From positions 1-64,000 of IMG/VR virus record IMGVR_UViG_3300009370_001552: a DNA stretch of 64,000 bases. The stretch is one strand, 5' to 3'. Below the pieces are notes generated by a model. That model searched no databases. It saw only the letters and a program-made list of their open reading frames with translations, and was not told where the DNA came from. The stretch is from a virus. Its lineage: Duplodnaviria > Caudoviricetes. The first letter of the stretch is position 1, and every line of letters starts with the position of its first letter. Made by a program: the position numbers and the translations under genes. Shown here one piece after another: positions 3,451 to 56,115 of the stretch.

Positions 3451-4306
3451 CCACTACTGCTCTACCTTTTAATTGTTCCCAATCTTTTTCAGGTCTTACT
3501 TTCAAATTAGTTTTCCAGGCTGCCTTTAATACTCCCATATCAACTCCAATCTCATCACCATACTTTATTAATGCCTGTATATCCTTGGGGAAACAACTAC
3601 CACCAAAACCAAGTTTACCATCATGACCTGGTACATTTAAATGAGAGTGTCCTACTCTGCCATCACGAATAAACCCCTCTAAAGCATGTTCCCATATTGC
3701 ACCACACTCGTCACTCAATAATTTCATATCATTAAGAAATGATATTTTAGTGGCAAAAAATGTGTTAGTCATATATTTAATAAGTTCTGCTGTTTCATAA
3801 TTAGTCTCTATAATTGAAACTGTATTACCAAATCGCCGTCTAAACAATTCACTAACCTCTTTTATATCATCTAAATTTCCACCAAGTATAAATCTTGTCT
3901 GATTGATGAAATCAAAATTAGCTGACCTTTCAGTTAAAAACTCTGGGTTAAATACTATTCTTAAATTAGAATACTTCTCTTGTAACTTTCTCGTTGTACC
4001 AGGAACAACTGTTGACCTCAAAAGAATTATATTATCAACGGATGCAGCATATACATTCATATCATTTAAAGCCTCATCTACTATATCAACATTAATAGTA
4101 CCATCCCTATTAGACGGTGTTGGAACTGATAAAAATATTATATCGCTTTCGATAACGACTTCTTCAAGTGTATGAAGTGATTTACTGGGATTTTTATCAT
4201 ATACTCTTATTTTAGCATCTACTCCTACATTTGGTGAAAATCCATATCGTACAGCATTTCCCACAAACCCACTACCAATAATTCCTATATGTTTATCTAT
4301 TTTCAT
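3443..4306 (-). CDS. UDP-glucose/GDP-mannose dehydrogenase family (short form lacking the C-terminal domain)
   Basis: IGSGFVG Rossmann motif, SVPTP, RSTVVPG, NPEFL, AELIKY..N and catalytic GGSCFPKD. Confidence 0.9.
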   Translation of the reverse strand: MKIDKHIGIIGSGFVGNAVRYGFSPNVGVDAKIRVYDKNPSKSLHTLEEVVIESDIIFLSVPTPSNRDGTINVDIVDEALNDMNVYAASVDNIILLRSTVVPGTTRKLQEKYSNLRIVFNPEFLTERSANFDFINQTRFILGGNLDDIKEVSELFRRRFGNTVSIIETNYETAELIKYMTNTFFATKISFLNDMKLLSDECGAIWEHALEGFIRDGRVGHSHLNVPGHDGKLGFGGSCFPKDIQALIKYGDEIGVDMGVLKAAWKTNLKVRPEKDWEQLKGRAVVDE

Positions 4307-12642: not shown

Positions 12643-13038
12643 TTACCAACTCACTTCCCAATCTTCAAACTCTGCTGCTATACAATCTACTTTATAATCT
12701 TTTCTTCCATCATCATCAAGTTGATCCTGTATAATGTTCTTTGCAGTATTTCTGATTCCATTTAATCCATGGGTAAGTCCAAGATTTCCATCACCCCCAC
12801 CTGCTCTGTATTTAGTTTCATTGTGCCATATATGTAAATTCATTTGAGATAGTACCACAATTGCCCTAACCATTTTTCCGTCTAAACCCAATTCTGTTAA
12901 GTCATGGACTATATCATCAATTTCTTGAGCATATTCCGCTTTATGTTCTGGAATAAACACTTCCTTTAATTGAATAATTGAAAGTCTATCTATTAACTCA
13001 CTAACAGTTGGTAAGTATTTTCTATCTATTGATTTCAT
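12643..13038 (-). CDS. Hypothetical helical protein
   Basis: 131 aa ORF overlapping its neighbours. ELIDRLSI..LK and NLHIWHNE motifs. Confidence 0.6.
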   Translation of the reverse strand: MKSIDRKYLPTVSELIDRLSIIQLKEVFIPEHKAEYAQEIDDIVHDLTELGLDGKMVRAIVVLSQMNLHIWHNETKYRAGGGDGNLGLTHGLNGIRNTAKNIIQDQLDDDGRKDYKVDCIAAEFEDWEVSW

Positions 13039-13252
13039 CGTATAACCTATTTTGAGTTTCTTGTTTATCTATTGTCTTATGGTGGTATAATGATAATTCT
13101 TCATTTGGTGGGAGGTGTGCGTATGTTTTACAACCTGTAATGTGTTCATGAACTGGTTTTACCCATCTTATTTTTTCATCATTACGAAATACTCTCGCTT
13201 GATAGTCGGGTGAGTTAATTATTGGAACTTTATATTTTACTTTGACTTTCAT
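13022..13252 (-). CDS. C-terminal half of a split/frameshifted GT2 glycosyltransferase
   Basis: PDYQARVFRN..IRW..PVHE..LYHHK is the usual C-terminal part of GT2 beta-1,4-glucosyltransferase-like proteins. Starts 2 nt after the stop of the N-half. Confidence 0.75.
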   Translation of the reverse strand: MKVKVKYKVPIINSPDYQARVFRNDEKIRWVKPVHEHITGCKTYAHLPPNEELSLYHHKTIDKQETQNRLYDEINR

Positions 13253-13254
13253 TT

Positions 13255-13779
13255 TTACAATATTTCTTCTTCAACAATTAAGTCCATTTTTTTCAAGAGT
13301 TTATATTCTTCACTTTCAGTATCCATAACCTTTTCATTATAAAGCTCAAATGGTGCAGTTATTTTCCAACCCCATTGTTTTATGTGTTGTTCTGTTATTC
13401 CATCAACTGTATTTACTCTTGGTATCCAAATTAAATCAGCATCATTCATTTCTAATATCGGTTTAAGTTGCTCTAATAATATTTCATTCGGGTACTCATC
13501 GGCATCCAGATGGAAAATATAATCACCGAAGCAATTAGCCTTCCCATAATTCTTTAACTCTGAAAAATCTCCATCAAAATCAAAATTTACTGAGCTGAAA
13601 GCTAATGGATCTTCGTAACTATATAGATAATCCCTGACCTCATCACTACCATTTTTACTATCTCTAACTATAACAATTTCATCTCCATCTCGTTTGTGTT
13701 TTAGTAGAAATGGAAGTAATTTTTGTATTTCTTCAAGTTCAGTGCAAACGGTAATGCAATAACTAATTTTCATTTTCAA
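13255..13779 (-). CDS. N-terminal half of a split/frameshifted GT2 glycosyltransferase
   Basis: KISYCITVC, IFHLDADE (DxD) and WIPRVN. Stops before the YQ-R/HE motifs. Confidence 0.8.
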   Translation of the reverse strand: MKMKISYCITVCTELEEIQKLLPFLLKHKRDGDEIVIVRDSKNGSDEVRDYLYSYEDPLAFSSVNFDFDGDFSELKNYGKANCFGDYIFHLDADEYPNEILLEQLKPILEMNDADLIWIPRVNTVDGITEQHIKQWGWKITAPFELYNEKVMDTESEEYKLLKKMDLIVEEEIL

Positions 13780-28657: not shown

Positions 28658-29538
28658 AAATGATTCACCACTTTGGGAACACGAGATATAAATTTATATC
28701 CCCCATCTACTCTTTCCCAAATATCTTTAGTATTGAACCATCCACTCGTCCTCTCCTCACCTAAATATCCCAACATAAGACCTGGTCCTTTTACTAATAA
28801 TTCACTTTTATAGTTCAACTTAACATCATAATCTTTATGTGGATTCATAATCAATGTATTTTTACCTGTCATTCCTGGCATTAAAACTTCCGTCATAGAC
28901 CAACTACACCACCAATCACTACCACATTGTTCTTTAAACTTATCAACTTGATATTGTTCAACAAAATCCGAACCCATAGTTGTTCTTGCACCATCAAAAT
29001 CTTCAGTACCATTTAACATATCATTCATCTTTGGTGTCATTGGAATCATAGTAAATGCATGTTTGTTAATTGTAGATGGATTCCATTTCTCTATTATAAA
29101 TTTTGCTCCAGATAAAAAAGATGGAATTGTTATCATTAATAATGCTGTCGTATTAGATAACTCTGGACAATAAACAAAATCATCTTCTGTATATTCCCAC
29201 TCTTTAATAGATTCTAAAACGCACCATTCAATACTACTCCATGAATGAGTAACAAATTTACTTTTACCTGTTGTTCCAGATGTAGAATAAACTGCTGCAA
29301 TGTCGTCTGTTAAATATTTAGACTTAGACTCTATCTCATCAAGATGGTGTTGTTCTATATTAGATGATACAGGAATATATGTTGTGTTAGTTTTATAACA
29401 CGCAAAGAAATCAATCACATAATCCATTCTCTCTTCAGATTTAGATATAAGGTATGTTCCATCTAACTGTTCTGCACGTTTATCTATATGATTGACTATT
29501 TCAGGATTAACATTCTGTAACATCTCATATAATATCAT
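28654..29538 (-). CDS. Minimal AMP-binding (adenylate-forming, acyl-CoA ligase-like) enzyme
   Basis: YSTSGTTGKSK P-loop, WSMTE, LLVKGPGLMLGY and WFNTKDI; lacks the C-terminal subdomain. Confidence 0.8.
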   Translation of the reverse strand: MILYEMLQNVNPEIVNHIDKRAEQLDGTYLISKSEERMDYVIDFFACYKTNTTYIPVSSNIEQHHLDEIESKSKYLTDDIAAVYSTSGTTGKSKFVTHSWSSIEWCVLESIKEWEYTEDDFVYCPELSNTTALLMITIPSFLSGAKFIIEKWNPSTINKHAFTMIPMTPKMNDMLNGTEDFDGARTTMGSDFVEQYQVDKFKEQCGSDWWCSWSMTEVLMPGMTGKNTLIMNPHKDYDVKLNYKSELLVKGPGLMLGYLGEERTSGWFNTKDIWERVDGGYKFISRVPKVVNHL

Positions 29539-30133
29539 AATTTCTCTATTTTATTTTTGTTTTCATGTGGAAATTCCATATCGGGTATAGGTTTATTTAA
29601 AAATTTACATAATTTTTCCCAACCATCTCCCTCATCACAAATATTCATATCTAAATAATCTATATTTTTCTTATTTAAAAATCTTATATTACTATCATGT
29701 TTAAATTTAGTCCTACCTTTCACCCACTCCTTCTGATGTTCTGGATAATTTCTAAACACTTCTTCATCACCGACACCTAACCAATTCCAATTATTAAACT
29801 TTCCTTGTTGTATTCTTATAATTTTACTCGTAAAACAGAATCCACGTAGTCATCTAAATTTTTTGTTAAACTAATATACTTGGCATCTGGATATTCATCT
29901 ACAATATGACTAAAGACTGTAGGTTCGTAGATAGGATAATCCAAATAACAATCATATTTATCAATTCCATCTAATATTCCCACACCAAGTTCTAAGTTAT
30001 TAGAAAATTTCATTAAGATTTCCATAAAATTATTACTTCCAGTATGTAACACACTATACCCTAAAATTTGTAATGATTGAGATAAACTTATAGTTCCAGT
30101 TTTATTATATCCCAATACAAATATTTTACTCAT
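29535..30133 (-). pseudogene. Sulfotransferase (Sulfotransfer_4-like) interrupted by a 1-nt frameshift
   Basis: N part KIFVLGYNKTGT...PDAKYI and C part DGWEKLCKFL..PIP..FPHEN. Adding one A in GTAAAATT (29822..29825) gives a continuous 199-aa protein colinear with the N-domain of 45129..46436. Confidence 0.75.
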
Positions 30134-49384: not shown

Positions 49385-50301
49385 TTAAAAAAATCTTTCC
49401 AGACTTTGCTCTTCATCTACCGGTGATCCCCAGTCTAAACACTCATAAAATAAATTGAGTTTTTTAGTGAGTGCCCTATCATATATCTTGTCGTAATCCA
49501 TATTTTCCTTAATAAACTGCATAATTTCTGGTGGATCTTCATAACCTTTATATGCCACTACTGTTAATCCAAGTGGATTATTCTTTAGATACACCCATCG
49601 TATTTTATCTCCATTACTAATAAACCCATATTTTTTATCTCGTTTATAGTATCGTAGTAAATCATTATAACTTACTGATGCTCTTACATGAACTGGAATA
49701 CCTTTCTTTAATACTGTAAATACTGATGAGTTTTTATTGTCCTTTTTAATATATTTCCACATTCCCTTTACACCAGTTGGAGACGATATTTCATCCAAAT
49801 CTTTTAATCTCATATTTTTCTTAAATCTGGTTATTCTATGGTCTATTTTATCTCGTGGAACACTTGCCAAAATATCTTCCAATACATCACTTAATAACTG
49901 TCTAAATGCTGGTGCGAAATTACTACGCACCGTATCCAATCCCTTTACCATAGTCTTGTTTACCTGAACTCCATTATCACTAATGATTTTCATACCATAT
50001 CGTTTCTTGGTAATAAATAAACCGGACTTTGCTATAATTTCCTGTTTAATCTCAAATCTGTGTTTATCTAAATTACAAAACTTCTTTGCAAAATAATCAT
50101 ATGAATTATTTAAATATTCTTGAACTTCGGTTGCTATTTCATTTATTCGTTGTGCCATCATTACATCACTCATTTCCTTACCCTTAAATCTATGGTTAAT
50201 GAGTTTTAGTGCTGATACGAAAATGGAGTCAGTCAGGTGTCAATATAGATCACATGATCCATATTGACATTAGGCAGCCTCCTTATTTTTTTTATTTTCA
50301 T
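49385..50301 (-). CDS. polB: Family B DNA polymerase, C-terminal subunit (palm motif C + thumb), interrupted by a 5-nt frameshift in DTDS
   Basis: True start is ATG 50301: MKIKKIRRLPNVNMDHVIYIDT-stop. Resumes 5 nt later as DSIFVS...MSDVMM, then KKRYG, KGLDTVRS and YKGYED. Removing 5 nt gives 303 aa with YIDTDS. Confidence 0.85.
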
Positions 50302-50302
50302 T

Positions 50303-51136
50303 CTATTCCTTAATTTCTATAAATTTACAACCAAGATGGTCTATTATTTCTTGTTTTCTTCTTTCATCTCGTTCTACTTGTTTTTTATGGAATGGTTCAT
50401 AATACTCTATAACCACGTTTTTTTCTTTATCATAACCATCTACAAAATATCCCAATTCTTTAATGTGATATTCACCACCGTTTTCAGCGTGTTGGAAATT
50501 GTATCCGTTTTCTTTTCCGTATTGTTCTATTAGTTTACAGGCTTCTGGGTTATATCCAGGCATCATTTGTCCACCATTAAAAACATTTCTCTCAATTCTC
50601 TTAATTGCAGATTTTCTCATTCTCCGCAATTCCTCCGTTCTCTTCGGGCGTTTATAGTTTCCACTATCTTCACCAGTCCGGATTTTTAATTTACTTACCT
50701 CTTTATTCATTTCATCTGCAATTTCAACACCAAACTTATCTACCCATACCTGGTAATAACTGCTACCATAATTTCCATTCCGTTCTCCACTCGCACCACG
50801 AGATTTGTTAAACTCATCAAATTGTTCTTTAGTCCAACCATACTTCTTTTTCTTATATTCAAATGAGTTGGAATGTGCTTGTTTTTCTCTATATTCATCC
50901 CATTTGATTTTTCCATCTATTTCACCGTGTTTTTTAATCATATTCTCTAAAGTATTAACTCGTTTACTTTGATATTTAATTTTAGCAACTTTAGCTTCAT
51001 CTAAATCCATTCCCTTAAATATAGTAAAGTATTCTATTGTTCCAGGTACTCTACTCAATCTCATTTTTTCAGCTTCTTCTTTTTCATAACCTTTGCCTAA
51101 CCAATGTTGTAGTGTTCTAGCACTTCCTCTACTCAT
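50303..51136 (-). mobile_element. Free-standing putative homing endonuclease (helical W/Y-x3-G repeats + HAENGGE nuclease) splitting polB
   Basis: C-terminal YNPEAC..FQHAENGGEY..VDGYDKEKNVVIEYYE..H domain shared with 16079..16774; sits between the two polymerase halves. Confidence 0.8.
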
Positions 51137-51178
51137 AATTTTTCTCCGTTAAGTTTTATATAGACACATCTGTATCTA

Positions 51179-51190
51179 TATATAAATATC
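51179..51190 (-). promoter_or_regulatory. Recurrent TATTTAT promoter-like motif
   Basis: GATATTTATATA in the 57-nt gap before the polB-splitting endonuclease. Confidence 0.5.
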
Positions 51191-51192
51191 AC

Positions 51193-52950
51193 TTAACCCA
51201 AAAAATCATCTGTTTCCAGTAAATCTTTTACTTTTATTTCCATTTTTCTACCGTTTCGTATTACATCAATTCTATTATTTTCGTGTAATTTTCTAACTTC
51301 ACCATTTTCCAATTCAACTTCAACGGGAGGTCCCAATTCACTATTATACTTATGATTTGCTATTTTTGCAGTGAACTTAATTAAATCCTGTCCTACTGTC
51401 GTCACAGAAGCCGCATTATCCAAATCATAAAATCTCCATCCCTGAAGTCCAAGTACGCCGTAAAGTGAATTAAGTAAAACCTTCTGGATATATTGCCGTC
51501 TATTAAAATACTCGTATCGTTCATCATTTCCTTCATCTGCAAATTTCCTTGCTAATTTTCTAAATTCCTTTCGTGTATCAAACCACTTGGATAGAATAGT
51601 TGAAATTAAACCTGCCTTATCCGTTTTATATAATATACCTTCACTTGAAATTGATACTTCATTATCATTAAAAAATGTCTCTAATTCTGTATTAGTTAAT
51701 TGTCCTTTCCTTTTCCCATTTAATATAATAGAATGTGTCTTTTTCTTCTTTCCTATAAAATCTTGAGCGTTCCACCCAACTACTTTTCCAAATTTTGTTT
51801 CTGGACTTATATTTAAGCTCATAATTATAGAAGGATACATACTTGTAATATCCAAATCATATACCCAGTCATGTTTACCCCGTTGTGGGCGTTTTACATA
51901 TGCACCTACAAACTTGTTATCTGTAAACTCACCCTTTTCTGGTTTATTAGGGGCAACGATATTCAATTTCTTCAAGTGAGTTAAAATTGCTCCTTCTAAA
52001 TATCTACTACTGAAATATATATCTTCATATGGAACATGACCAATATGACAAATACCTCGTGCAATGTCAATAAAATCTAATTTATCATCCAATTGTTTTA
52101 CTATTCTAACATCATGAATATTATATTCCACAAACTTTCTCAAATCATTTTCATATAAATCATTCAATGTTCCATCATAACTTATTTTAGTTGAACCAAC
52201 CTCTGTTTGACCTATATCATCCAATCTATATGATGGTCTTGATCCAAATGTAAAATCTTTATAGAGTAATAGATAATCTAATACACTTACCCCTGCTATT
52301 TTATATCGTTTAGTGTATTTACTATACATCACTTTTGATATCGGTGATAAATTGTCTGCAACACTTTGACCGAGAACTCTAATTGTTCTATTATATAAAT
52401 ATGGAATATCGAAACCATCTACATTCCAACCAGTAATTATAGTAGGTCGTAATTCTAAATATTTTTGGTAAAACCTCTGTAACAATTCATATTCCGTCTG
52501 ACAACTTTCTACTACACTCTTGCCAAATCCTGTTGTATCTAATGTCTTACGTTCATCTAATACTAAACAAGTGTAAACATTTCTGATATTATCCCACATA
52601 GCAATTGAAGTTATTTTATTCGGTGCCTTCATTGGGTCTGGAAATCCCTCTGTAACTTCACACTCAATATCAAATATGAATATCTTATGTCCAGTGGACG
52701 GTTCTTCACTTTTCCCATACATATCAATCAAAGTTCTCATTTCAGGATTTACATCACTTTCCCACAATCCCTGTGCAGTCTTATCCCATCTATATACTTT
52801 CTTTAATTTATCACCATATAAAGATGCAAACGTTCCATAATTATCTTTAATATAAGCATACTTTTTATATTGCGTTGTTATATGTCCGTTACGATCATCC
52901 CAAATGTGGACAACCCCCTTGAATGGTTCTACATAGATATTTTGATAAAT
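51193..52950 (-). CDS. polB: Family B DNA polymerase, N-terminal subunit (exonuclease, motifs A and B) with a Hint-like C-terminal tail; probable AUU start
   Basis: Exo motifs FDIEC, GWNVDGFD and YNIHD; DLDITSMYPS; QKVLLNSLYG. The frame extends 61 codons upstream of the annotated TTG start to (I)YQNIYVE, with no ATG/GTG after the stop at 52972..52974. Confidence 0.9.
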   Translation of the reverse strand: MYQNIYVEPFKGVVHIWDDRNGHITTQYKKYAYIKDNYGTFASLYGDKLKKVYRWDKTAQGLWESDVNPEMRTLIDMYGKSEEPSTGHKIFIFDIECEVTEGFPDPMKAPNKITSIAMWDNIRNVYTCLVLDERKTLDTTGFGKSVVESCQTEYELLQRFYQKYLELRPTIITGWNVDGFDIPYLYNRTIRVLGQSVADNLSPISKVMYSKYTKRYKIAGVSVLDYLLLYKDFTFGSRPSYRLDDIGQTEVGSTKISYDGTLNDLYENDLRKFVEYNIHDVRIVKQLDDKLDFIDIARGICHIGHVPYEDIYFSSRYLEGAILTHLKKLNIVAPNKPEKGEFTDNKFVGAYVKRPQRGKHDWVYDLDITSMYPSIIMSLNISPETKFGKVVGWNAQDFIGKKKKTHSIILNGKRKGQLTNTELETFFNDNEVSISSEGILYKTDKAGLISTILSKWFDTRKEFRKLARKFADEGNDERYEYFNRRQYIQKVLLNSLYGVLGLQGWRFYDLDNAASVTTVGQDLIKFTAKIANHKYNSELGPPVEVELENGEVRKLHENNRIDVIRNGRKMEIKVKDLLETDDFLG

Positions 52951-53014
52951 AATATAACCTCTTTTGTTTATTTATGAGTATTCTTAGTCGTCATTATCAT
53001 CAATTGTGTATTAT

Positions 53015-54649
53015 TTATGTGACGCATGTATCAGAATTACAGAATTTTTCTACAATCGCTTCATTGCCTTTGACTTGTCTAAATGATAAATGTTTTAATT
53101 TCTTCAATAATTTATTATATGTCTTTTCATCAATTTCTTCATATGGCATTTGTTTGTATGCTCCGAGTTCGTGTCGTGGTAAGAAAGAAACTGACTTTAA
53201 TTTATATTGGTAAAAATCTAATGCTGACTTAATTTGATCACCTTCTGTTTCTGGGTCAAATGTAATGGTAACTGAAACAGCATTGTCTGCCCAATGTTCG
53301 GCCATAAATGCTGCCAACTCTAATTGTTCCCATATTGAAACTGACTTTAATGTTTTTATTCCGTCACCCACATCAACTGGAACTTCAACTACTACCGTTG
53401 AATCTTCTTGACCTACTGCTGGTTCTATATGATACCCAGCACTCTTTAACGCTTTTATCAATGGACTATCGTTACCTAATCTAATTCGTCGTATGTAAAA
53501 ACGAGATTCTGGATAATGTATTCCAGGAGTTGCTCCAGCTAAAAGGCTGATTGAACCTGATGGTTTATTTGTAGAAAGTCTAATACTCCTTGGGATAGCA
53601 AACCAATCCGAATATATTTTATCATATTCTTTTAATGAATTGTATCCAGACCTTAACCAATCTTTCAATATAGATAATGAATTATTAGTTAAAAACTGTG
53701 TAACTCCACTTACAGAAGTTCCCACTCGTCTGTTTCGTAACATTACTCTGTTAGTTTCTGGCCAATGGGTGTCTAATAAAGTTACTGTCTTTGAATAAAG
53801 GTATGCATATTTTAATGACTTAATGAAATCTTCTTTACTTTCGTGTCTATCTGGAAATACTTCTACAAGATTGCATTTCTCGCCAGATTCTAACACGATT
53901 TCGCCACAGGGATTGGTCCCCATCGTTCTATTATCACTTACACCATTAGTCCCATCTCCCATTCTTTTATTATTATGAGCATTTTCTAACCAAATTAGTC
54001 CAGGTTCACCATTATTTTTAATTCGTTCTGCTATATCAGTATAATCCATACCAAGTTCTGCTAATACTGAATTGTTTGAAGCCCAACCGAAGTCAGCTCT
54101 TTCTGGATTCTTTTTATAATCTTTTAAGTCCAAAAATTGTTCAGTATTGTCTCCTGCTGCTAGCAATGCGCTGCGTCGCACATTTCCAGCCACGACAGCC
54201 TTTCCAATTAAATTAAATATATCAACTATATTTCGTTCACTAATTGGACTACCAATACTTTCTGTTAAAATCTCTGTTACTTTATCGTGTAATGCCTTTA
54301 ACGGCTTATACCCAGATGAAGTTCCACCAAATGTTTTTATAATGGCACCTTCCGGTCTGATTTTAGAATAATCAAATACTGGTCGTTGAGAGTTACCAAA
54401 GAAAGAATCTATAACATATCCTAAACTTTCTACCCATCCCTCTCTACTGTCTGGAACAGTAAAATTAAATTCGTTATGAGATGGTGATTTAATTGTTATT
54501 TGGTCTGCACCTTTTGTATCAAATCCCACACCAACTCCACAATTATGAACAACATTACCATTTCCCAAAACATATGTGTTATTTCCTGGTATGGTTAAAT
54601 CATAAAATAGTTCATCGTTTGGTATATAGTTTTTATTAATAATTTTCAC
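53015..54649 (-). CDS. nrdJ: Class II (adenosylcobalamin) monomeric ribonucleotide reductase, C-terminal precursor with IntC
   Basis: IntC then CGVGVGFD, GNVRRSA, GTNPCGEI (N-C-E), CNLVE, KPSGSIS and terminal FCNSDTC; GTG start overlapping the endonuclease TGA. Confidence 0.93.
   Translation of the reverse strand: MKIINKNYIPNDELFYDLTIPGNNTYVLGNGNVVHNCGVGVGFDTKGADQITIKSPSHNEFNFTVPDSREGWVESLGYVIDSFFGNSQRPVFDYSKIRPEGAIIKTFGGTSSGYKPLKALHDKVTEILTESIGSPISERNIVDIFNLIGKAVVAGNVRRSALLAAGDNTEQFLDLKDYKKNPERADFGWASNNSVLAELGMDYTDIAERIKNNGEPGLIWLENAHNNKRMGDGTNGVSDNRTMGTNPCGEIVLESGEKCNLVEVFPDRHESKEDFIKSLKYAYLYSKTVTLLDTHWPETNRVMLRNRRVGTSVSGVTQFLTNNSLSILKDWLRSGYNSLKEYDKIYSDWFAIPRSIRLSTNKPSGSISLLAGATPGIHYPESRFYIRRIRLGNDSPLIKALKSAGYHIEPAVGQEDSTVVVEVPVDVGDGIKTLKSVSIWEQLELAAFMAEHWADNAVSVTITFDPETEGDQIKSALDFYQYKLKSVSFLPRHELGAYKQMPYEEIDEKTYNKLLKKLKHLSFRQVKGNEAIVEKFCNSDTCVT
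54542..54649 (-). other. Split intein C-fragment (36 aa)
   Basis: MKIINK...FYDLTIPGNNTYVLGNGNVVHN followed by +1 Cys. Confidence 0.93.
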
Positions 54650-56115
54650 AATATTTTCCTCTCGTCTATCAATTTCAAAACTTTATTAAAATCTTGTTTT
54701 ACATCATTTTCCCAAATAACTAAAACATTATATCCCATATTTTCTAATTCATTTATTCTATTTCTATCAGTTAAATGAACAGATGAAAATGAAATATTAT
54801 CAGCAATGCTATCTGATTCGGTATATATTTCTGGATTCATATGCCAATAATCACCGAAAAACTCAACAATTAAATTTAACTCTGGTATATAAAAATCACA
54901 ACAATATGTACAATCTTTACCATGTACAAAATATTGATGAATTGTTTTTAGATATTCATTTGATATTACAGAATACACCTTATATTCCATTTTTGAAACT
55001 TTATTCATATTTTTCAAATTAATAAGTGATGCTCGTCTGCTATTATCACTTATTATTTTTTTAGCATCATTTATATTATATCCACGGTTTATCCAAAATT
55101 CCTTACTAAATGAACTTGTTTTAATCGCAAATTCATATGCTAACTTTTTAGATTCACTCATCGAATATCCAATATTTAGCCAATAATATATGCATTTACG
55201 TTGTTTACGTGCTCGTTTAGATTGGTTTTTATGAATTATATAAATACTTTCTTCGTCAGAAAATCCTAATCTGTTCCAATATTTTATATTGTTATAACTA
55301 CTATCAGATAATTTTTTTGACTTTTCTTCATATAATTCACTCCCACGTTTATTACCATATTTATTTACATAGTATTTTTTAGATGAAAAATCTTGATTTC
55401 CACTTATTATTTTTTTAGCCACACTTTCATCATATCCAAGTTTTATCCAATATTCTACACATCGAACATTATTACTTCGTTTAATATAATCGGCTTCATT
55501 ATTAGTGATGCCCCTTGCTTTAAAATACTGTGTAGTTGGATATCTATTAGCTTTAGATACCCTATCTACTGATTTATATTTTTTATATTCTTCAACGGAC
55601 CCCAACCTGGTAATTAAATTTTCTCGTGTTAATGAACACCTCGATTTTGCTTTAGTTGCCAATTTCTTCGCACTCAATATTGATTCACCGCGAATCTCCC
55701 AATATTCAGGATATTTATTACTGGTTGTGCGTTTTATATAACTAGAATACGTTATAGCGTCATCGTTTGAAAATCCATTTTCTATCCAAAATTTTGTAGT
55801 TTTAACAAGCGTATTAGTAATAGCTTTATGTTTAATTTTATTAAAAACATCACTTAAATTTCTAATTTTCCAAAATATAGGATTTTTACTATCAGATAGA
55901 ATCCTATCCTTTCGTAATCGAAGTTTATTGTTAATTTCATCTTCCGAATGTCCTTTTATTTTCCACTGGTTTATCCAATACCCCTCACTACCTCTACTAT
56001 CTGATGTAGCACATTTTTTACATACCGTCTCGTTAAAAATTGAATTCTCCAACTGATATTTAGTAGAATATATTTGAGTTGCCCCACAATTATTACAGTT
56101 TTTTTTATGTTTCAT
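54646..56115 (-). mobile_element. Free-standing Vsr/DUF559-like homing endonuclease with tandem W-x3-G helical repeats, splitting nrdJ
   Basis: SKME...CDFYIPELNLIVEFFGDYWH...D..R...GYNVLVIWE; about 9 repeats; N-terminal CNNC/CKKC. Confidence 0.85.

Follow-up and report, generated by a model that had tools for sequence, protein, structure and literature searches.

On the minus strand of the window (the whole stretch of 64,000 nucleotides analysed here), a T4 gp43-like family B DNA polymerase is encoded in two parts with a further gene between them (Table 1). The family assignment is based on Pfam matches on both halves, which cover the exonuclease and polymerase domains. The closest named relative is Microcystis phage Mel-JY01, where the polymerase is one uninterrupted gene. 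In tblastn, the Mel-JY01 polymerase aligns to 52950-51331 (its residues 1-553) and to 50233-49382 with 45% and 42% identity respectively, and it gave no other polB match within the 64-kb window. No tRNA genes were found in the window, and megablast of the locus against 50,697 phage records returned no match. The locus is best read as a T4-like family-B polymerase gene that has been cut into two cistrons by a mobile homing-endonuclease cassette, i.e. a 'fractured' polB.

The N-terminus of part A offers no ATG, GTG or TTG. The ATT at 52950 aligns with Met1 of the Mel-JY01 polymerase (52948-52965) and is preceded at a distance of 7 nt by the Shine-Dalgarno sequence AAGAGG, and the same ATT arrangement is seen in the relative L003 (1700-1716). 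Judged from these sequences, part A probably uses a weak AUU start at 52950.

Part B is itself interrupted. Letter for letter as in the original prediction, the minus strand from 50241 to 50225 reads GAC (50241-50239) ACC (50238-50236) TGA (50235-50233) CT (50232-50231) GAC (50230-50228) TCC (50227-50225), so that the five bases TGACT separate the DT from the DS codons of polymerase motif C. The frame opened by the ATG at 50301-50299 ends after 22 codons with Y-I-D-T at the TGA, and the remaining subunit (DSIFVS..., 281 aa, stop at 49387-49385) lies in a frame two bases further on; the stop after Y-I-D-T and the change of frame are as had been predicted. Upstream of the Asp codon at which it resumes, this downstream frame has three open codons only (CAC CTG ACT). 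Thus motif C, YxDTDS, is complete only when five bases are skipped. The insert had been described as something other than a single clean tandem duplication, which is right: it reads as GACT doubled plus one T.

Table 1. Features of the split polymerase locus and of its coding gap, with positions in the window
Feature	Position	Strand	Basis or remark
polB part A	51193-52950	-	N-terminal two thirds of the polymerase; exonuclease domain plus palm motifs A and B; Pfam DNA_pol_B_exo1 and DNA_pol_B
Non-polymerase tail of part A, last 45 codons	51330-51196	-	Same tail in all split relatives
Inverted repeat (hairpin) TATATAGA...TCTATATA just upstream of the endonuclease gene	51157-51182	-	Direct sequence reading
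Free-standing homing-endonuclease-like gene, 277 aa, between the polymerase halves	50303-51136	-	Position and fold match
Start of part B: ATG, head MKIKKIRR, linker, strand VIYIDT (22 codons)	50236-50301	-	
RNA hairpin	50238-50269	-	5' arm 50269-50256 (linker codons), loop 50255-50252, 3' arm 50251-50238
Take-off codon ACC (Thr)	50236-50238	-	
Five-base coding gap TGACT	50231-50235	-	Stop TGA 50235-50233 plus CT
Proposed landing codon ACT	50233-50231	-	Last three gap bases
Remainder of part B: resume codon GAC, the second Asp of DTDS, through to the stop codon	49385-50230	-	Pfam DNA_pol_B

Conservation of the gap and its sequence rule

A short indel inside a conserved motif, in a window where other broken frames are present, could point to a sequencing or assembly error in this record, an alternative that the original prediction had taken seriously. 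The closest relatives argue against it: they keep TGACT while the codons around it differ synonymously. In the two nearest lineages, L202 (87.7% nucleotide identity) and L003-L007 (85%; five IMG/VR contigs from five metagenomes), the same five bases stand in at least eight independently assembled contigs, and they recur in many more distant ones; the TGACT gap is also found in L191, L193, L195 and L198. L202 reads ACT TGACT GAT, and L003-L007 read TAC GTC GAC ACT TGA CT GAT TCT, where the flanking differences are synonymous or conservative. Moreover, a search with part B retrieved clusters of 90% identical proteins that begin at the gap with MTDS or LTDS, on 85 and 11 contigs. Comparison with relatives, which had been proposed as the way to expose an artifact, therefore shows the five extra bases kept rather than missing. 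The part B DNA of the window is 87.7% identical to that of L202 (dS 0.65, dN/dS 0.07) and 85.3% identical to that of L003 (dS 0.89, dN/dS 0.06). Because dN/dS is 0.06-0.07 at a dS of 0.65-0.9, the downstream frame is a functional gene, and the gap has persisted despite extensive divergence. We give an error in this record a negligible probability; by these comparisons it is excluded, and the gap is real and old.

Two other frameshifts had been claimed in the window. Near 29822, the Sulfotransfer_4 gene (29535-30133, minus strand) is indeed broken into two ORFs, which match profile positions 1-108 and 166-213 with about 55 bases of unassigned sequence between them. A pseudogene, a frameshifted gene and a further recoding site are all conceivable readings of this split. 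At 13257 the sequence simply shows two ORFs within 13022-13779 (minus strand), separated by a stop and then an ATG: a glycosyltransferase-2 ORF of 174 aa has its stop at 13255, and a second ORF of 76 aa, for which Pfam gave no match, begins at 13252. The pair may be one broken gene, as had been claimed.

Gapped lineages were collected by scanning the pattern Y-[IV]-D-T + TGA + NN + D-S-x-F against the JGI metagenomes (TGA+NN form only) and the pattern Y-[IV]-D-T + TAR + NN + D-S-x-F against IMG/VR. The TGA pattern was found at 20 places, 13 of which are polB part-B genes; the other seven were rejected as chance matches. A pattern match in L166 was also rejected, being a chance occurrence in an unrelated gene. 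The TAR pattern was found at 10 places, all of them polB part B, all with TAA and none with TAG, so the break does not arise by chance matching. Together with L169 (reached via P0094) and L272, the pattern finds make up 18 distinct, diverged metagenomic lineages from IMG/VR and JGI that carry a five- or six-base gap between the T and D codons of the same motif; these lineages are related by descent, so counts among them are not counts of independent events. In the comparison set, 293 other polB loci read YxDTDS uninterrupted, three of them split but ungapped, and 287 polB loci were classed as intact and unsplit. P0037, P0060 and P0081, used as IMG/VR queries, returned ungapped relatives only.

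The gap follows a simple rule. Its first base is T and its third is A in 18 of 18 lineages, and its second is G or A; a TGA or TAA stop directly follows the Thr codon in every short-gap lineage (18/18). TAG is absent although the pattern allowed it, and TAG could not supply the A of an ACN codon. The fourth base is C in 14 lineages and T in four, while the fifth (T, G or C) looks like a wobble position. The last three gap bases form a Thr codon (ACT, ACG or ACC) in 14 of the 18; the other four have non-Thr triplets, ATG (L169, L347 and L272) or ATT (L200). In eight lineages the same codon stands at the take-off and landing positions, namely ACT/ACT in seven and ACG/ACG in L205, whose relatives have ACT. 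The pair in the window is ACC/ACT. Such variation is what 'a stop plus a Thr codon' predicts.

Other gap-like arrangements were noticed during these searches. The N-termini of P0060 and P0123 (MLSTLTRSSDS... and MLSTSTRSADS...) back-translate to VIY(I/V)DT shifted by one base, which implies 7-nt gaps at the same site, as far as back-translated N-termini can indicate. L315 (about 3960-4000) has an unsplit polymerase with a one-base frame break, ...GGT AAT TCC TGA T..., 30 nt before YIDT. The break is shaped like a shifty stop, and in this single contig an error is possible.

Proposed translation across the gap

A hairpin directly precedes the take-off codon. By RNAfold, a stem of 12-20 bp is present in 18 of 18 gapped lineages and reaches as far as the Asp codon that precedes the take-off codon. 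The 3' arm of this stem consists of the codons (I)-Y-(I/V)-D and the 5' arm is the linker of the head. In the window the stem has 13-14 bp and a predicted energy of -20 kcal/mol, and its 3' arm covers the codons I-Y-I-D and the first base of the take-off codon. When seven lineages were aligned without gaps, 94% of the cells were paired, compared with 14-44% when the partner was slid. Three pairs in this seven-lineage alignment changed on both sides, and its covariation score was 0.286 versus 0.152 in shuffles, none of 500 shuffles reaching 0.286. Across all 18 lineages, both-sided changes occur at five stem positions, e.g. AUU:AAU versus AUC:GAU and UAU:AUA versus UAC:GUA. The same 63-nt stretch folds at a mean of -20.2 kcal/mol in gapped genes, against -6.6 +/- 2.6 kcal/mol in 184 distinct ungapped polymerases. 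The stem was absent from these 184 polymerases and also from the split but ungapped L304 and L328. Hence the hairpin goes with the gap and not with the split. The opposite holds for the conserved head MKIKKIRR, the candidate for a nascent-peptide signal of the gene 60 type, which in P0081, L304 and L328 is joined to an uninterrupted DTDS; as it is present in ungapped split genes, the head tracks the split and not the gap. The sequence AAGGAGG inside the head was considered as a hop stimulator and rejected, since its position is 44 nt upstream and several gapped lineages have a weaker version of it or none.

In lineages with a Thr landing triplet, the window among them, these features are best read as a hop. 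We consider it fairly probable that a programmed +5 stop-hop by peptidyl-tRNA-Thr, aided by the hairpin, gives YIDTDS in the window. The second cistron would start at ATG 50301 and yield the short head and VIYIDT before meeting UGA in the weak context UGA-C. Release at UGA would be slow, peptidyl-tRNA-Thr would detach from ACC, the mRNA would move forward by five bases, and the same tRNA would re-pair with ACU. Decoding would then resume at GAC and give one polypeptide with an intact YIDTDS; this +5 hop product would span the junction peptide VIYIDTDSIFVS. With ACC in the P site, the 3' arm of the hairpin would lie in the exit path of the ribosome and the 5' arm and loop outside it. The hairpin could then re-zip as the 3' arm leaves the ribosome, pulling the mRNA forward. 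Zippering of a 5' stem-loop as the forward driver has been proposed for T4 gene 60 (PMC5009743; 10.1101/2024.12.09.627546), and it is by analogy that we infer a role of the hairpin in the hop. The Thr-to-Thr stop-hop of the original prediction fits the stop with a Thr landing triplet, the covarying 5' hairpin, and seven lineages in which no restart codon is available. Neither the hairpin nor the homing-endonuclease cassette had figured in that prediction.

Those seven (7/18) are the window, L200 and the five lineages with a TAA stop, where the open downstream stretch contains no ATG, GTG or TTG. Because no such codon is present, a restart could not make the catalytic half in these lineages. 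Some points weigh against the hop. Synthetic stop-hops of this size are low-level in E. coli while an essential polymerase needs a good yield, and four of 18 lineages have a non-Thr landing triplet. In the latter case a near-cognate landing is an option, because with T in place of C the middle base of the anticodon can still form a G-U pair.

The main competitor of the hop is termination at UGA followed by restart on the overlapping NUG, which is CUG in the window. This would result in a three-piece polymerase, in which a small peptide ending in YIDT and a catalytic piece starting with (M)TDS are held together as strands of one beta-hairpin. For the window we regard this as rather unlikely. 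An NTG arises automatically in the downstream frame whenever TGA follows a Thr codon: it is TTG or GTG in eight lineages and CTG in the window and L200, while the five TAA lineages have NTA. The TTG or GTG in those eight lineages is the reason why gene callers begin proteins at the gap, and the called proteins of P0005 and P0037 do begin with MTDS. An ATG stands directly before the Asp codon in L169, L347 and L272, with the stop-start overlaps TGATG, TAATG and TAAATG, respectively; L337 has no matched landing codon but GGGGA and an AUG two codons before TDS; and a weak ATT start seems to be used for part A in these phages. All of these favor a restart. In the window, however, the sole candidate start is CUG, a very poor initiator, with no Shine-Dalgarno sequence before it. 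The five TAA lineages have NUA and thus no start codon, yet they keep the Thr triplet and an intact frame of 281-285 aa. ACA-UGA, which would provide the best overlap (AUGA), occurs in none of the lineages. A restart also leaves unexplained why a hairpin should accompany the gap, and a break between the two catalytic aspartates would be structurally unfavourable, as judged from family-B polymerase structures.

ATG-ending gaps with a stop-start look were observed in L272 (about 3985-4006), L169 (3987-4012), L347 and L350. They may mark lineages in which the polymerase is physically split between DT and DS, and a polymerase split at motif C may be viable. In the three ATG lineages L169, L347 and L272, restart fits their sequences better than near-cognate landing. 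If split enzymes are viable, as the ATG lineages and L337 suggest, the argument that a hop is needed becomes weaker. Neither reading covers every lineage, since seven have no start codon whereas the ATG lineages and L337 look restart-like. In some derived lineages, a change to a physically split enzyme or a near-cognate landing is conceivable.

It is quite improbable that this gene copy is dead or dispensable and that replication is carried out by another phage or host polymerase. Such a view could draw on the fact that only 64 kb of the genome are in view and that at least the sulfotransferase gene is broken as well. T4-like phages, however, rely on a gp43 of their own, and this gene is the sole polB match in the 64-kb window. 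Moreover, the strong purifying selection on the downstream frame described above is not that of a dead gene, and conservation across the 18 lineages extends to the gap, its stop, the Thr triplet and the hairpin.

A +2 shift with the stop in the A site, after which a fresh Thr-tRNA decodes ACU and gives YIDTTDS with one extra Thr, is a shade more improbable still. It would impose the same constraint of a stop followed by a Thr codon. But the P-site tRNA-Thr would sit on NUG or NUA, where no pairing is possible, the product would have an insertion between the catalytic aspartates, and the 6-nt (L272) and 39-nt (L243) gaps are unreadable by +2.

Three further explanations were rejected. A group I intron or an intein would need more than five bases, and the codons on both sides encode polymerase in their respective frames. 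Reading UGA as sense would only carry the upstream frame to a TAA nine codons on. A -1 shift lacks a slippery site and would put two extra residues into the motif.

The putative endonuclease cassette and the long-gap relatives

The cassette is arranged in the order of tail, endonuclease, head, short host-like stretch and gap. All split relatives, an uncultured phage of 484 kb among them, conserve the 45-residue non-polymerase tail of part A. Homologues of the 277-aa ORF (37-60% identity) lie between the halves in L191, L198, L205, L209, L304 and L328. L003 has a shorter related ORF in its place, and in L202, L169, L193, L195 and L200 the endonuclease ORF is missing while the split is kept. No Pfam match, HNH included, was obtained for the 277-aa ORF, PHROGs gave an unnamed family only, and its sequence profile had no match in the PDB. 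The structure model has a mean pLDDT of 64, rising to about 75-85 in the C-terminal domain. Among other restriction-endonuclease-like folds, this domain matches I-Bth0305I (3r3p; Z 6.3, 19% identity) and Vsr (1cw0; Z 6.2, 22% identity). On the modelled fold, the ORF looks like a putative Vsr-like homing endonuclease, in agreement with the gene-fracturing nucleases of Dassa 2009.

With 45 aa in the tail and about 12 aa in the head, the extra pieces are too short for an intein; there is no junction Cys/Ser and no terminal HN, and functional intein blocks are not evident. In a FastTree phylogeny of 208 distinct part-B proteins, cassette-bearing genes fell into 12 separate clades, and parsimony required 11 changes versus 17.6 for shuffled labels. 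This sequence tree is at most suggestive of a cassette that was repeatedly gained or lost.

Two related arrangements were observed elsewhere. Upstream of the polymerase in the window (53015-56115, minus strand), a 489-aa ORF ends in an endonuclease-like motif and a 544-aa ORF has a start resembling an intein C-fragment; the two may represent a second fractured gene. In the 484-kb uncultured phage (L002, LR756508.1; 3770-6823), part A has an intein-like insert in motif B and a C-terminal tail of the same type, and no part B was found within the 4 kb examined after it.

Longer gaps at the same polymerase site were found in two relatives. L243 (3899-4018; L261 is one and the same contig) shares the head and the 5' hairpin and has a 39-nt gap after YID, with GAT as take-off codon and GAT as landing codon, followed by ACA GAT TCA. 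The gap holds a 9-bp stem-loop with TAA in the loop, and GGAG lies 7 nt before the landing GAT. L243 thus has the full layout of gene 60 and, by analogy, supports bypassing as the way in which this family would read its gaps. A weak ATT start after GGAG is a conceivable alternative in L243. L337 (3878-4012) has a 42-nt gap in which the landing codon has been lost, with GGGGA and AUG present instead.

We see an even chance that marine T4-like phage replicative polymerases carry a family of endonuclease-borne micro-bypass elements, with gaps from 5-6 to 39 nt at one site, in the smallest of which a stop, a repeated Thr codon and one exit-side hairpin would suffice for an efficient hop. If so, no earlier natural stop-hop would be known, and the mRNA-zippering idea could be examined in a minimal system. 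To our knowledge, efficient programmed bypassing in bacterial viruses is essentially one system, T4 gene 60 and its homologues, and the many bypass signals of gene 60 are hard to separate. A true hop would mean that bypassing has evolved in a second essential gene or was carried into it by endonuclease cassettes. It would also mean that a stop, a matched codon at a distance of five bases and a 5' hairpin can be all that is required, putting the model of the exiting mRNA as driver directly to the test. Gene callers would then systematically truncate these polymerases, starting them at MTDS or at a later Met, with consequences for metagenomic viral polB phylogenies and annotations. Should restart be true instead, it would be remarkable in its own right that a replicative polymerase can function although its catalytic hairpin is severed between the two aspartates.

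Comparison with known systems

In the literature searched, coding gaps are not reported for any phage DNA polymerase. Breaks in the gene as such have precedents. Dassa et al. 2009 described genes fractured by free-standing Vsr-like (EDxHD) homing endonucleases, with hairpins upstream of the endonucleases (PMC2677866). The polB locus resembles these cases in the endonuclease ORF between adjacent half-genes, in the hairpin upstream of that ORF and in the loss of the ORF from some relatives. The extra terminal residues at the break are also similar to those of the intein-less SbcD case. Most of the Dassa cases rely on split inteins, whereas functional intein blocks are not evident in the polB halves. 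For gp43 itself, a split by an endonuclease is already known from Aeromonas T4-like phages (Petrov and Karam, as cited in PMC2677866). Unlike the present locus, the fractured genes of Dassa 2009 and, in that citation, split gp43 are not described as having a coding gap or a broken frame in their downstream halves.

Short inserts that ribosomes skip between matched codons occur as 'byps' in Magnusiomyces mitochondria (Lang 2014, as cited in 10.1101/2022.08.31.505936). According to that citation, the byps are mobile, GC-rich inserts of 27-55 nt in a mitochondrial setting and with no endonuclease cassette, unlike the gap in polB.

The closest likeness in distance is found in synthetic stop-hops in E. 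coli, i.e. those of Weiss et al. 1987 (+5, +6) and O'Connor 1989, as these are summarised in later papers (10.1101/2022.08.31.505936, 10.1101/2024.12.09.627546 and PMC5009743). There as here, a peptidyl-tRNA crosses, or would cross, a stop between matched codons over +5 or +6. The synthetic hops are low-level reporter events with no stimulators, whereas polB has a conserved site in an essential gene and a dedicated hairpin. No natural stop hopping was known as of the 2016 review (PMC5009743).

In overall design the locus comes closest to T4 gene 60. The MobA/gene 60 element, as outlined in 10.1101/2022.08.31.505936 (with Bonocora 2011 cited there), consists of a C-terminal extension, an endonuclease, an N-terminal extension, a short host-homologous stretch and a gap, and the gap protects the DNA from the endonuclease (10.1101/2022.08.31.505936). 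By analogy with gene 60, the polB gap might also protect its DNA from the endonuclease; L304 and L328, however, have the same endonuclease family and no gap. In both systems an endonuclease gene splits an essential replication gene, leaving an extended upstream half and a new head on the downstream half, and a gap that is, or in polB would be, untranslated lies inside a catalytic motif after a short host-like stretch. Both also have a stop right after the take-off codon, matched codons and a stem-loop 5' of the take-off site; of the polB relatives, only L243 also shares a stem-loop within the gap and, ahead of the landing codon, an SD-like GGAG. On the other hand, the target is a topoisomerase there and polB here, and the HNH endonuclease MobA there corresponds to an endonuclease that is Vsr/EDxHD-like by its fold here. 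The gap of 50 nt (20 in one Aeromonas clade) compares with 5 nt, too short to hold an A-site stem-loop or a landing SD. In polB, the 5' hairpin abuts the take-off codon. No homology between the polB cassette and the gene 60 element was seen. Taken together, the polB element is best read from its sequence features as endonuclease-linked translational bypassing, in a variant form.
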